A DNA stretch of 5,880 nt. Source: Escherichia coli. Its GTDB lineage: Bacteria; Pseudomonadota; Gammaproteobacteria; Enterobacterales; Enterobacteriaceae. The notes under the pieces are model-generated. The model did not search any database. It saw only the letters and a list, made by a program, of their open reading frames with translations, and had not been told where the DNA came from. Numbering within the stretch: the first letter of the stretch is position 1; the number at the start of each line of letters is the position of its first letter. A program made the translations under genes and the position numbers. This document shows, piece by piece, positions 1,731 through 5,880 of this stretch. The stretch is taken from NCBI RefSeq assembly GCF_030013595.1, contig NZ_CP122773.1; one strand, given 5' to 3'.

Positions 1731-1759
1731 GGTACGTACAAACTGTTGTTATGTTAAAT
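1731..1759 (+). other. XerC/XerD core recombination site (cer-like, variant central region)
   Basis: GGTACGTACAA (1731-1741; 10/11 to cer XerC arm GGTGCGTACAA), 7-bp central ACTGTTG (1742-1748), TTATGTTAAAT (1749-1759; identical to the dif XerD arm, 10/11 to cer TTATGGTAAAT). Confidence 0.7.
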
Positions 1760-1781
1760 ACTGATGGGCTTTCCTGATTGA

Positions 1782-2696
1782 TTATCCGAAGATCAATCCC
1801 CAAACACTTTTAGCTACAGAAACAATGGCTTTCTTGGCGACTTTAGCCACTGACGCTATTGGTTTAGGTAGTACGGTGTCTATTATATCATCAATAGCTC
1901 TATCTACGGTGTCTGCGAACCCGTCCTTTGCCGTTTCTACAATTTCTTTTGTTTTTATTTCGTCTTTTACTTGATGCACCACTCCGCTCTGTGCTTCCTT
2001 TGGGAGCGATCTTACTATTGCCTCCACTAACCTTGAAATGTTATAACCTTCATTCGCAGATACAGATATAACGGGATGTTTGGTAAAACCGAATCGTTCT
2101 ATTAAGTATTCTTCCTTTTTTCTAATATTTATTTGTTGTGAGGGTGATGGTTGGTGTTTTTCTTCATCCCATTCGCGGAATGGCTCAATCTTGTCGACTT
2201 GGTTTAAAACAAACAACACTTTTTCATCACCACCAACTGGTTTTAAAACATTTTTATAAAAGTGCTCATCAGCTGAAAATGCTCGATCATCACCTTTAAC
2301 AACCCAAAGCACCAGATCTAATTCTGGGAGAAGATTTTTATACAACTCTTCATATTCTATATCTTTAGCTTCATTTTCACCTACACCTGGTATATCTATT
2401 ATTTTAATTGTTCTATCACCAAATGAAATTATTAATTCCTGAACCTTTCTCGTGCATGCTTCTACATCACTCACTGCACATACATTACCTTTAAAGATAG
2501 AATTACATAGGCTGGATTTACCAGCGCCGGTTTTACCCATAATCCCTATTACTGGTTCGTAATTAATAACATTTCTAATTTTGTTATAGACAGACTTGCG
2601 AATCTCTTTAGGTAGAACATCCACAGCTTCTTTGATTAATTTTATACCTTGCGTATTGTTTTCCATAGTTACTATTTTCCTCATTTTGTTGTTCAT
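1782..2696 (-). CDS. P-loop GTPase, YfjP/YeeP/YkfA-like (50S ribosome-binding GTPase / MMR_HSR1-type domain)
   Basis: Walker A GKTGAGKS (nt 2514-2537, minus), G3 DIPGVGE, G4-like NQVDK; stretch VIGIMGKTGAGKSSLCN...DxPGVGE...LDLVLW resembles E. coli prophage GTPases YfjP/YkfA as I recall them. Start is ambiguous: ATG at 2696 lies 5 nt after the upstream gene stop; ATG at 2666 has an AGGAA 9 nt upstream; the track's ATG at 2753 gives a K/R-rich extension overlapping the upstream gene and has no SD. Confidence 0.8.
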   Translation of the reverse strand: MNNKMRKIVTMENNTQGIKLIKEAVDVLPKEIRKSVYNKIRNVINYEPVIGIMGKTGAGKSSLCNSIFKGNVCAVSDVEACTRKVQELIISFGDRTIKIIDIPGVGENEAKDIEYEELYKNLLPELDLVLWVVKGDDRAFSADEHFYKNVLKPVGGDEKVLFVLNQVDKIEPFREWDEEKHQPSPSQQINIRKKEEYLIERFGFTKHPVISVSANEGYNISRLVEAIVRSLPKEAQSGVVHQVKDEIKTKEIVETAKDGFADTVDRAIDDIIDTVLPKPIASVAKVAKKAIVSVAKSVWGLIFG

Positions 2697-2701
2697 ATGA
2701 A

Positions 2702-3136
2702 TTAACGGAAGCTTGTTTTTCTTTCTTCTTTTTCTTCCCCGCATACAGAACATTTGTAATGGCGATAGGTATCAGAACTCCCACTAAGATACCAATTGTG
2801 TCTTTTACCATGAACTCGCTCTGTAAAACATCTCACGCATCTTTCTTTCACATTGCAATAATCATCGACTGCAATTTCAACAAATCTTTCATGCCTTTCG
2901 CCTTCTTGTTCAGCGCCACAGTCGATACACTTTTTTACAGTTGTGCACTTGAAATCGTATTTATAATTTTCCTCTCCGTATTTATGCTGTTCTTTTTGTA
3001 TAGTGCGATTGCAGTCAGGGCATAGTTTAGAATATTTACAAGTCTCACCATCAATAAGCTTATAGTTTCCTCCGTGTATACCTACCCCACACTTAGCCTT
3101 GATTGCTGCATTTTTTATGCTATCCCAAAAGCCCAT
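2702..3136 (-). CDS. Cysteine-rich putative zinc-binding protein (three tandem C-x5-C-x2-C...H modules plus terminal CxxC)
   Basis: 144-aa ORF; SD GGGAG 8 nt upstream of ATG at 3136; 12 Cys; C33-x5-C39-x2-C42, C64-x5-C70-x2-C73, C94-x5-C100-x2-C103 with periodicity ~30 aa, each followed by His, and C129-x2-C132; AT-rich like neighbours. Confidence 0.75.
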   Translation of the reverse strand: MGFWDSIKNAAIKAKCGVGIHGGNYKLIDGETCKYSKLCPDCNRTIQKEQHKYGEENYKYDFKCTTVKKCIDCGAEQEGERHERFVEIAVDDYCNVKERCVRCFTERVHGKRHNWYLSGSSDTYRHYKCSVCGEEKEERKTSFR

Positions 3137-3181
3137 GGAAAAATCTCCCTACGATTAGTTGATATAAGTTGAACAATTCAT

Positions 3182-3225
3182 CGACATGATTATACACGTA
3201 TAGTGTGTGGATATATAAAAATGAG
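3182..3225 (-). promoter_or_regulatory. Candidate sigma70 promoter for the zinc-ribbon/GTPase operon
   Basis: Perfect TATAAT on the minus strand (complement of 3189-3194) about 46 nt upstream of the 3136 start codon; -35 is weak (TATATA-like); AT-rich intergenic region. Confidence 0.3.
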
Positions 3226-3363
3226 TATGGATTTATGCTCTGTATAATGTTGTTGTTATATTAAATATAGAGCTGAAAAAGTGGGGGCACTGGATAAACT
3301 TCGTGTTTTTCCCGCAAAGATAGTATTGGAAAGTCATTGTCTAATTCATCCAAGATAAATATT

Positions 3364-4176
3364 TTACGAATTTGTGAGTTTGCTTGAGATTTTTATATAT
3401 TCAGCCTTTATTAACTCATTGCCATATTTTTTCTCGAGCCTTTTAACAATGAAATGACCTCGAGCCATATCTTGATAATAGTCGGTAAACATTGTGTTTA
3501 ATGTGGCTCCAGTTAGTGCTCCAATAACGGGAACGACTTGAGCTGCCATTTTTTCCGTAATAACTATACCAAATCTTGTTGCAACTTTTTCTATTAACGA
3601 AGCTAACCATTTTCCTGTTTGTACTGAAGATGCGTTTTTGACAGCAATGTTAGAAATTTCTTTGGATAAATCTTGTACGATCTCGGCAGTCAAACTTCTT
3701 GTTGCATAGTATGCAGTATTAGCTGCATCATCGTCATCAGATGGTCCTCCCAAGGAAAACACCTCTAAGCAGGCCAGTTTGGTATCAATATTATCTAGCT
3801 CAAAACCTTCACTTCTTGCTATGTCAGCAATTGAACGAAGCATAATTGTCGTTGAAACCGGTAACTCAATTGCTAATGCAGAAAAGCCAAAAGCGCCACC
3901 AATGGCTCCAGATACGGCCGCAAAGAATTTATTTGTCTTAGTTGATGCTATTCGGTTAGGTTCATTGTCTAGACTCCATAAGGCTGCATCAGCAGCTTTG
4001 TGGAGAGATTTTTCTACTAGACTATAAATTTGCTCTTCTGCCCCTTTGGGAAGTTTACTCATTAAGTAATCTATTGGGGTTCCAACTAATTGGGTTAATG
4101 TTTCAGTAATTGTATCTTGTTCTAATAATTCTACGGCCCTTTCTAAAGCCCGCAGATCTCCTTCTTCAAGATGCAT
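3364..4176 (-). CDS. Hypothetical protein, possibly EcsC-family-like
   Basis: 270-aa ORF; AAGGA 8 nt upstream of ATG at 4176; Gly/Ala-rich hydrophobic segments (AAVSGAIGGAFGFSALAIELPV, VVPVIGALTGATLNTMF), acidic patch GGPSDDDD; overall impression matches EcsC-family proteins but this is from memory, not a search. Confidence 0.7.
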   Translation of the reverse strand: MHLEEGDLRALERAVELLEQDTITETLTQLVGTPIDYLMSKLPKGAEEQIYSLVEKSLHKAADAALWSLDNEPNRIASTKTNKFFAAVSGAIGGAFGFSALAIELPVSTTIMLRSIADIARSEGFELDNIDTKLACLEVFSLGGPSDDDDAANTAYYATRSLTAEIVQDLSKEISNIAVKNASSVQTGKWLASLIEKVATRFGIVITEKMAAQVVPVIGALTGATLNTMFTDYYQDMARGHFIVKRLEKKYGNELIKAEYIKISSKLTNS

Positions 4177-4329
4177 ATAATGAATCCTTTATGAATCAAT
4201 CGATAGTCTACTTTTGTAAGTGATTCGTCTTGGGAGCTTACCTTGAGCGAGTTCAGTGATTCAATAGGCGAGATGCCGACATCATTGTTGTCTGTGAAGC
4301 AGGAGTGATGAAAAGATCAAAGGATCCTC

Positions 4330-4358
4330 TTGTGATCCTTTTTTTCTGCGCGTAATCT
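4330..4358 (+). promoter_or_regulatory. RNA II (replication primer) promoter
   Basis: -35 TTGTGA (4330-4335), 17-bp spacer, -10 TAATCT (4353-4358); aligns with the pMB1 P2 region (TTGAGA...GTAATCT). Confidence 0.7.
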
Positions 4359-4367
4359 GCTGCCTGT

Positions 4368-4475
4368 AAACAAAAAAACCACCGCTACCAACGGTGGTTT
4401 GTTTGCCGGATCAAGAGCTACCAACTCTTTTTCCGAAGGTAACTGGCTTGGTGGAGCACAGATACCAAATACTGT
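4368..4475 (-). ncRNA. RNA I antisense copy-number control RNA (108 nt)
   Basis: Reverse complement of 4368-4475 reads ACAGTATTTGGTATCTGTGCTCCACCAAGCCAGTTACC...CCACCGTTGGTAGCGGTGGTTTTTTTGTTT, i.e. the canonical three stem-loop RNA I with terminal hairpin plus U-run; differs from pMB1 in loop-proximal bases. Confidence 0.85.
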
Positions 4476-4483
4476 CCTTCTAG

Positions 4484-4511
4484 TGTAGCCGCAGTTAGGC
4501 CACCACTTCAA
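4484..4511 (-). promoter_or_regulatory. RNA I promoter
   Basis: On the minus strand, -35 TTGAAG (complement of 4506-4511) and -10 CTACAC (complement of 4484-4489), 8 nt upstream of the RNA I 5' end; same arrangement as pMB1. Confidence 0.6.
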
Positions 4512-5149
4512 GAACTCTTAATATCTCAATCCACCTTGTCCAGTTACCAGTGGCTGCTGCCAGTGGCGCTTTGTCGTGTCTTACCGGGTTGGACTCAAGA
4601 CGATAGTTACCGGATAAGGCGCAGCGGTCGGGCTGAACGGGGGGTTCGTGCACACAGCCCAGCTTGGAGCGAACGACCTACACCGAACTGAGATACCAAC
4701 AGCGTGAGCTATGAGAAAGCGCCACGCTTCCCGAAGGGAGAAAGGCGGACAGGTATCCGGTAATCGGCAGGGTCGGAACAGGAGAGCGCACGAGGGAGCC
4801 ACCAGGGGGAAACGCCTGGTATCTTTAAGTCCTGTCGGGTTTCGCCACCTCTGACTTGAGCGTCAATTTTTGTGATGCTCGTCAGGGGGGCGGAGCCTAT
4901 GGAAAAACGCCAGGGGCGCGGCCTTTTTCCTGGTTTTGCCTTTTTGCTCACATGTTCTTTCCGGCCTTATCCCCTGATTCTGTGGGTAACCGCATTACCG
5001 TCTCTGAGTGAGCTGATACCGCTCGCCGCAGCCGAACGACCGAGCGCAGCGAGTCAGTGAGCGAGGAAGCGGAAGAGCGTAGGCATTTGCATTTTCTCCT
5101 TACGCATCTGTGCGGCATTTCACACCGTCCATGGCGCACTTTTCATACA

Positions 5150-5311: not shown

Positions 5312-5503
5312 TCAGTGGTTTTCACCGTCATCCCCGAAGCGTGCGAGGCAGCTGCGGTAAAGCTCATCGGCGTGGTCGTGAAGCGATTCACAGATATCTG
5401 CCTGTTCATCCGCGTCCAGTTCGTTGAGCTTCTCCAGCAGCGTTAATGTCTGGCTTCTGATAAAGCGGGCCATGTTAAGGGCGGTTTTTTCCTGTTTTGT
5501 CAC
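5312..5503 (-). CDS. rop: Rop/Rom RNA I-RNA II pairing modulator (63 aa)
   Basis: GTG start at 5503 preceded by GGAGG 5 nt upstream; protein (M)TKQEKTALNMARFIRSQTLTLLEKLNELDADEQADICESLHDHADELYRSCLARFGDDGENH matches pMB1 Rop except the last residue; the 87-aa track ORF is an upstream in-frame extension. Confidence 0.9.
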   Translation of the reverse strand: MTKQEKTALNMARFIRSQTLTLLEKLNELDADEQADICESLHDHADELYRSCLARFGDDGENH

Positions 5504-5567: not shown

Positions 5568-5880
5568 ATGCTCACGATACGGGTTACTGATGATGAACAT
5601 GCCCGGTTACTGGAACGCTGTGAGGGTAAACAACTGGCGGTATGGATGCGGCGGGTCTGCCTGGGGGAGCCGGTTGCCCGTTCCGGAAAACTGCCGACAC
5701 TGGCACCGCCGTTACTGCGTCAGCTGGCCGCCATCGGAAATAACCTGAATCAGACAGCCCGTAAGGTGAACAGCGGGCAGTGGTCTTCCGGTGACCGGGT
5801 TCAGGTGGTGGCCGCACTGATGGCCATCGGGGATGAGCTGCGCCGGCTGCGTCTGGCTGTCAGGGAACAGGGGGCGCGGG
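5568..5880 (+). CDS. mbeC: Mobilization protein MbeC (3'-partial, runs off window end)
   Basis: ATG at 5568; open frame to window end translating MLTIRVTDDEHARLLERCEGKQLAVWMRRVCLGEPVARSGKLPTLAPPLLRQLAAIGNNLNQTARKVNSGQWSSGDRVQVVAALMAIGDELRRLRLAVREQGAR, matching ColE1/pMB1 MbeC as recalled; not in the ORF track because it has no stop in-window. In-frame ATGs at 5535, 5544 and 5553 are alternative starts. Confidence 0.85.
   Translation, partial: MLTIRVTDDEHARLLERCEGKQLAVWMRRVCLGEPVARSGKLPTLAPPLLRQLAAIGNNLNQTARKVNSGQWSSGDRVQVVAALMAIGDELRRLRLAVREQGAR

Follow-up and report, generated by a model that had tools for sequence, protein, structure and literature searches.

The window, the whole stretch of DNA that was analysed (5,880 nt), is a complete, circular, natural mobilisable plasmid of the ColE1 family, linearised at the start codon of mbeA. 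It was judged to be a complete plasmid because circular plasmids of 5,878-5,892 bp from E. coli, Salmonella and Klebsiella are colinear with it along the whole of its length, at 96.7-98.7% identity, and because the mobC reading frame, which runs over the ends of the window, closes across them. Besides the mbe genes and a cargo island, the plasmid carries an RNA I/RNA II origin, rop and mobC. The features are listed below in plasmid order, with the strand where it was assigned.

1-1554: mbeA, mbeB and mbeD
1740-4200: cargo island of low GC content (36.5%, against 54.4% in the backbone)
1782-2666, 2702-3136 and 3364-4176, minus strand: the three cargo genes
4330-4358, plus strand: RNA II promoter, placed by alignment to ColE1/pMB1 (-35 TTGTGA at 4330-4335, where ColE1 has TTGAGA; -10 TAATCT at 4353-4358; 17-nt spacer)
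4366-4907, plus strand: RNA II primer transcript of about 542 nt, start at G4366, placed by alignment
4475 to 4369, minus strand: RNA I gene, antisense copy-control RNA of about 107 nt (Rfam RF00106; 3' end approximate)
4438-4466, minus strand: 5' hairpin of RNA I, loop CCACCA at 4449-4454 and bulged U at 4458, from folds and the Rfam alignment
4407-4435, minus strand: middle hairpin of RNA I, loop UUGGUAG at 4418-4424, same as in ColE1 and pMB1
4370-4406, minus strand: 3' hairpin of RNA I, also its intrinsic terminator, loop UUGGUAG at 4385-4391
4482-4511, minus strand: RNA I promoter, placed by alignment to ColE1/pMB1 (-35 TTGAAG at 4511 to 4506; -10 TACACT at 4487 to 4482; 18-nt spacer)
4901-4908, plus strand: predicted replication origin, site of RNase H processing and of the RNA-to-DNA switch (GGAAAAAC), assigned by homology
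5312-5503, minus strand: rop/rom, GTG start, 63 aa (Pfam PF01815; 1ROP)
5568-5880 and 1-11: mobC

The proteins encoded by the cargo island are a small GTPase (Pfam MMR_HSR1, with weak PADLOC matches to LeoA/LeoBC), a cysteine-rich protein of 144 aa without a family match, and an EcsC-family protein that weakly matches PDC-S29, a candidate defence family. This trio is kept in all relatives of about 5.9 kb and could be a putative defence or addiction module.

RNA I was identified with the Rfam RNAI model (RF00106), which matches the minus strand from 4473 to 4370 and scores 68.6 bits where the gathering score is 47 (E = 1.7e-11, model positions 1-102 of 102), a score that rules out a chance resemblance. 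The 5' end at 4475 and the length were taken from identity to ColE1/pMB1 RNA I (108 nt). Read from 4475, the minus strand of the window is ACAGTATTTGGTATCTGTGCTCCACCAAGCCAGTTACC...CCACCGTTGGTAGCGGTGG, or, as RNA, ACAGUAUUUGGUAUCUGUGCUCCACCAAGCCAGUUACC...CCACCGUUGGUAGCGGUGG. The minimum free energy (MFE) fold of this RNA is the same as the centroid fold and consists of a 9-nt tail followed by three hairpins, and a terminator scan returned a terminator-like hairpin at 4400 to 4376 (minus strand) followed by a U-run. The hexamers of the RNA I promoter were assigned after those of the pBR322 promoter; a generic promoter scan of the window made no call at this promoter. Hairpins are named here by the published numbering, which runs III, II, I from 5' to 3' (Chaillou 2022, PMC9458437, Fig. 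1 legend). Because of this order the variant 5' hairpin is hairpin III; the preliminary description of this DNA, which had named the hairpins the other way round, referred to it as stem-loop I and to hairpin I as stem-loop III.

RNA II can be aligned over its full extent with the ColE1 and pMB1 origins, with promoter hexamers and GGAAAAAC conserved, and RNA I is complementary to its first 110 nt or so. It is 91% identical over 706 nt to the ColE1-type origin, and alignment to a pMB1 RNA II reference sequence gave 548 identical columns of 613. The 3' end was set at the last A of GGAAAAAC, on which nt 555 of that pMB1 sequence falls. By homology, then, RNA I of the window would be antisense to the 5' end of a primer RNA II of about 550 nt, with an origin processed by RNase H at the other end. 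Divergence from the ColE1-type origin is found mostly in two segments, one at 4519-4580, downstream of the RNA I promoter and net 13 nt shorter, and one at 4912-4941, around the predicted origin; the roughly 330 nt between them are almost invariant. Rop scores 128.6 bits with Pfam PF01815 (cut-off 25) and is identical to PDB 1ROP at 62 of 63 residues (E = 7e-38), the sole mismatch being the last residue; the earlier wording was "essentially identical to pMB1 Rop".

In relatives of this plasmid, annotation pipelines place a short CDS, labelled "replication initiation protein", within the non-coding RNA II/RNA I region (e.g. WP_071529495.1), and in the window two minus-strand ORFs, at 4317-4511 and 4495-4653, overlap the origin. 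Because ColE1-type origins need no plasmid-encoded Rep protein, such a CDS is most likely a spurious annotation.

Differences between the RNA I of the window and that of ColE1 are limited to the 5' hairpin. They comprise positions 4450-4453 in the loop, which reads CCACCA in the window and CUGCUGA in ColE1 and pMB1, and the bulged base at 4458 (C to U). Just beyond RNA I, position 4367, which is RNA II +2, differs as well. The loop change amounts to three transitions (U to C, G to A, U to C) and a 1-nt deletion, which together alter four of the seven loop positions. CCACCA at 4449-4454 is left open as a 6-nt loop on the closing stem GCU/AGC; in the MFE and centroid folds each of its bases is unpaired at P = 1.00, and the Rfam alignment likewise assigns these bases to loop columns. 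Because the substitutions sit in the loop of the 5' hairpin, the view that they are only compensatory changes within a stem can be set aside. The middle and 3' loops are the same as in ColE1, and on the RNA II strand the loop that faces the variant loop reads UGGUGG.

The two RNA I strings that the preliminary description had quoted for this locus are both present on the minus strand of the window, and the pMB1 RNA I with which it had compared them is real, being found as an exact ...CTGCGCTCTGCTGAAGCC...CCACCGCTGGTAGCGG... in 17 metagenome contigs. The second difference that it had drawn from that comparison, CCGTTGG in place of CCGCTGG, does not set this plasmid apart, the same T being present in the 6,646-bp colicin E1 plasmid pSN38_s1 and in 12 metagenome contigs. 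The U/C difference at 4391 is a polymorphism between ColE1 and pMB1, of which the window carries the ColE1 allele. The same base had been described as keeping its pairing through a G-U wobble. It forms a U·G stem pair in the MFE fold only; in the Rfam consensus structure a loop of 7 nt begins with it.

The UGGUGG loop of RNA II (4449-4454) is in addition complementary to both other RNA II loops, which read CUACCAA (4385-4391 and 4418-4424), with an isolated-loop duplex energy of -6.9 kcal/mol as against +1.3 kcal/mol for the ColE1 loop. Speculatively, UGGUGG may kiss the CUACCAA loops within or between RNA II molecules and in this way modulate sensitivity to RNA I.

The origin was compared with those of known plasmids. 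ColE1, represented by pSN38_s1 (NZ_LC438465.1), shares with the window the RNA I/RNA II, Rop and MobC/MbeA/B/D organisation, and its RNA I is identical in the 5' tail and in the middle and 3' hairpins, including the U at 4391. It differs from the window in having the CUGCUGA loop with a C bulge (CCACCA and U in the window), C at RNA II +2 (U in the window), a longer segment at 4519-4580 and differences around 4912-4941, and its cargo is colicin E1 in place of the island for the GTPase, the cysteine-rich protein and the EcsC-family protein. The pMB1/pBR322/pUC origin has the same architecture as the window and a Rop matching at 62 of 63 residues, but carries the CUGCUGA 5' loop and C, where the window has U, at 4391. 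ColE1 and pMB1 form one incompatibility group (PMC9458437, introduction); p15A, RSF1030 and CloDF13 are separate ColE1-type incompatibility groups that use the same antisense mechanism (PMC9458437).

Other plasmids carry the loop of the window on different surroundings. The Eco29kI restriction-modification plasmid pECO29 (NC_001537.1), with plasmids of 4.1-5.4 kb from E. coli, Salmonella and Shigella, shares CCACCA, the 3' hairpin and the RNA II 5' end GUAAAC, but the cargo is different, and pECO29 itself has a C bulge and one extra nucleotide per strand in the middle hairpin. Plasmids of the pR18.1932_5.4k type have the U bulge of the window but an altered middle stem and, again, different cargo. 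In pU90-3 and pFUJ80155-3 (5.6 kb), CCACCA is set in an RNA I region that is otherwise that of ColE1 over the 130 nt compared; these two are unlike the window in their C bulge, ColE1-type RNA II 5' end and cargo, which in pU90-3 includes EcoRI restriction-modification genes.

The spread of the allele was assessed in plasmid, genome and metagenome collections. The 110-nt RNA I region is 100% identical in 7 PLSDB plasmids, all of the same 5.9-kb family, and in pTig228-5K, a further member of that family, and one metagenome contig carries the exact RNA I of the window. A 53-nt segment spanning the hairpin was used as a query that has no seed on the ColE1 allele; 13 RefSeq E. coli records, which come from 11 strains and again belong to the 5.9-kb family, match it at 100% identity. 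That the variant arose from an error of sequencing or assembly was rejected on the independence of these 13 records and on the repeated finding of the full region in the PLSDB plasmids and the contig. With the 53-nt query, the CCACCA hairpin was matched in 167 PLSDB plasmids (about 160 carriers; 84 from E. coli, 33 from Shigella, 27 from Salmonella, 13 from Klebsiella and 5 from Edwardsiella) and in 126 of 5,426 complete E. coli genomes. Among 49 metagenome contigs with identical stems, the loop was CUGCUGA in 29, CCACCA in 17, and CCACUUA, CCACUAA and CCACUUU in one each. The CCACCA loop is an already known and common natural allele, and the novelty implied by the preliminary description is absent; the complete sequence of pECO29 dates from 1998, according to the entry in the reference list of PMC3039593. 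Because CCACCA occurs on several backgrounds (otherwise ColE1-type in pU90-3 and pFUJ80155-3, with an altered middle stem in pECO29 and the pR18.1932_5.4k type) and because an allelic series exists on identical stems, the 5' loop behaves as a discrete module that is recurrently exchanged or selected.

RNA I hairpins are mosaic in nature. The exact ColE1 5' hairpin is found beside unrelated middle and 3' hairpins (e.g. in strains Survcare045 and Z1323HEC0399), and the CCACCA hairpin is paired with at least four variants of the middle stem.

Copy control in the window would follow the ColE1 scheme. RNA II (4366 to about 4907) would prime replication as in ColE1, and RNA I (4475 to 4369) would kiss RNA II through its three hairpin loops and then zip from the free 5' tail, preventing maturation of the primer, with Rop stabilising the kissing complex. 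In this type of control, complementary loops interact first and full pairing comes after (PMC9458437). The passages of PMC9458437 that cite Tomizawa & Itoh 1981 and Lacatena & Cesareni 1981 give loop bases as accepted determinants of RNA I/RNA II recognition and state that single point mutations in RNA I loops can alter incompatibility; in this the preliminary description, which had named loop changes as what sets copy-control specificity in the family, agrees with the accepted view as given there. Replacement of CUGCUGA by CCACCA would remove one of the three kissing contacts with ColE1/pMB1 partners, and the remaining contacts would be cognate, since the 5' tail, both other loops and Rop are of ColE1 type.

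Nearest-neighbour energies were calculated for duplexes of the isolated loops, a crude measure that does not describe the kinetics of kissing complexes, and gave -8.4 kcal/mol for the cognate pair of window RNA I and window RNA II, -9.6 kcal/mol for the cognate pair of ColE1 RNA I and ColE1 RNA II, +1.9 kcal/mol (no pairing) for window RNA I with ColE1 RNA II, and -2.6 kcal/mol for ColE1 RNA I with window RNA II (five pairs, three of them G·U). The energies of the two heterologous pairs are asymmetric because the substitutions are all transitions. ColE1/pMB1 RNA I could therefore still pair with the RNA II loop of the window, in a helix that contains G·U pairs, and RNA I of the window would be unable to pair at the RNA II loop of ColE1.

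The region is the RNA I/RNA II antisense module of a ColE1-family plasmid, and we lean, with moderate confidence, towards a reading in which its incompatibility with ColE1/pMB1 is weakened, probably non-reciprocally, and not replaced by a cleanly separate specificity. Both the size and the direction of this effect are what we infer from the loop contacts. Cross-inhibition would probably be weakened and not abolished because the 5' tail and the two other loops are identical to those of ColE1, and asymmetric residual cross-talk is suggested because ColE1 RNA I can wobble-pair with RNA II of the window. Of the distinct incompatibility specificity put forward in the preliminary description, one part holds, in that a loop and not a stem has changed; the other is undercut, in that two of the three loops agree with ColE1 and what had been counted as a second difference is simply the ColE1 allele. 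In a directed-evolution study, loop divergence alone was not predictive of compatibility and cross-talk could be non-reciprocal (Chaillou 2022, PMC9458437), and because divergence is insufficient and cross-talk asymmetric in that work, a decision on compatibility from sequence alone is disfavoured. Searches of the literature returned no experiment on the CCACCA allele.

Natural co-residence, as a proxy for mutual exclusion, was sought among sequenced strains. Intersecting the strain names from two hairpin-allele searches gave, among the matches listed, six E. coli strains with both 5'-hairpin alleles; the ColE1-hairpin query returned 362 E. coli genomes, a count that overstates the ColE1 allele because the query also catches C-bulge CCACCA plasmids through a shared 28-nt prefix. 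For the complete E. coli genomes as a whole, allele frequencies give an expectation of about 7 genomes with both hairpin alleles, whatever their other loops (roughly 126 × ~290 / 5,426). In five of the six strains, again among the matches listed, the partner plasmid matches ColE1 in the 5' hairpin only, with different middle and 3' hairpins. Strain U90 is the only one of the six listed in which partners differ solely at the 5' loop. It holds pU90-3, with CCACCA in an otherwise ColE1 RNA I, beside pU90-2 (NZ_CP068037.1), an 18.7-kb head-to-tail dimer of a ColE1::IS66 plasmid. The dimer has origin copies near 8990 and 18350, one canonical ColE1 and the other with the CCACCA loop and the short form of the variable segment on ColE1-type flanks. 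Colicin E1/immunity and EcoRI restriction-modification are modules in U90 that possibly favour retention of the plasmids. Ambiguous as the strain is, U90 shows that the CCACCA and ColE1 alleles can share one cell.

The halves of pU90-2 differ in only three patches, two of which are the RNA I loop (CCACCA versus CUGCUGA) and the variable segment of RNA II; the RNA I promoter spacer between these patches is ColE1-type in both halves. The mosaic could have arisen by gene conversion from the co-resident pU90-3, or could be an artefact of assembly or polishing.

Three further cases were considered as evidence on compatibility with ColE1/pMB1 and rejected. The small co-resident plasmids pMD29 (strain ECL27829) and pTig228-4K (strain Tig228), the two that came from a search of neighbouring accession numbers in which the other records were chromosomes or large plasmids, are uninformative, their RNA I being divergent in all three hairpins, and the second RNA I of p602A1-12K is divergent everywhere. 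In their loops, these origins differ from ColE1 in all three, and the window in one only. The last of these plasmids (CP100018.1, 12.9 kb) carries the origin of the window (721 of 721 nt) and its cargo island. It also has a second, divergent origin of ColE1-like type, at 86.6% identity, and two transposase genes of the IS91 family, and is apparently a cointegrate that joins two plasmids of ColE1 type.

Of the alternatives to weakened, probably non-reciprocal incompatibility, the one that survives best is that proposed in the preliminary description, in which the loop swap by itself would put the CCACCA lineage into a separate class, stable together with ColE1/pMB1 replicons. Because single-base loop mutants are reported to be sufficient to affect incompatibility (PMC9458437), full compatibility could follow from a change at four of seven loop positions, which counts against a merely partial effect. 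A separate class is also favoured by the absence of any predicted pairing between RNA I of the window and the RNA II loop of ColE1. The recurrent allelic series at the 5' loop is the expected product of selection to escape cross-inhibition, and the presence in U90 of a canonical ColE1-allele origin, on pU90-2, alongside pU90-3 fits real compatibility better than residual incompatibility and so also speaks against our reading. Against a fully separate class stand the two loops and 5' tail that are the same as in ColE1, the wobble-paired contact that persists between ColE1 RNA I and the RNA II loop of the window, and the finding of Chaillou 2022 that loop divergence is no predictor of compatibility. 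U90 itself can be read otherwise, pU90-2 being a heterodimer with a mosaic and possibly artefactual origin and both plasmids carrying retention modules, and the other five co-resident pairs differ beyond the 5' loop, in all three hairpins. On balance we regard a fully separate class as unlikely.

A little less likely again is the view that specificity is unchanged, the allele being neutral and the two shared loops and the tail sufficing for cross-inhibition, with copy number at most tuned by loop size (6 versus 7 nt). In its favour, the plasmid keeps to the ColE1 type in two loops, the tail, the promoters and Rop; in plasmids without Rop, copy number correlates with the summed length of the RNA I loops (Chaillou 2022, PMC9458437); and among the co-resident plasmids examined, no clean natural coexistence depending on the 5' loop alone was found. 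This view has to contend with the concentration of RNA I changes in the 5' loop within about 100 nt of almost invariant sequence, with the occurrence of several alternative alleles at that loop, which is unlike neutral drift, and with a heterologous loop helix that is predicted to be lost in one direction and weak in the other.

Weakened and probably non-reciprocal incompatibility is the reading carried forward here. The compatibility of this replicon with pMB1/ColE1 vectors that the preliminary description suggested is a moderately plausible prediction. More tentatively, and as something we would not expect to hold, the CCACCA allele might mark off, inside ColE1 itself, a natural subclass of incompatibility that works in one direction, so that competition between the two lineages would be one-sided. 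The understanding of ColE1 control would be unchanged by this plasmid: its principle dates from 1981, engineered orthogonal ColE1 origins already exist (PMC9458437) and the allele is common in public plasmid sequences. If the loop swap truly gives compatibility with ColE1/pMB1, the family would offer a ready-made natural origin, one loop away from ColE1, of use for work with two plasmids, and with it a clean test, provided by nature, of the number of kissing contacts that determine incompatibility and of the reciprocity of cross-talk.
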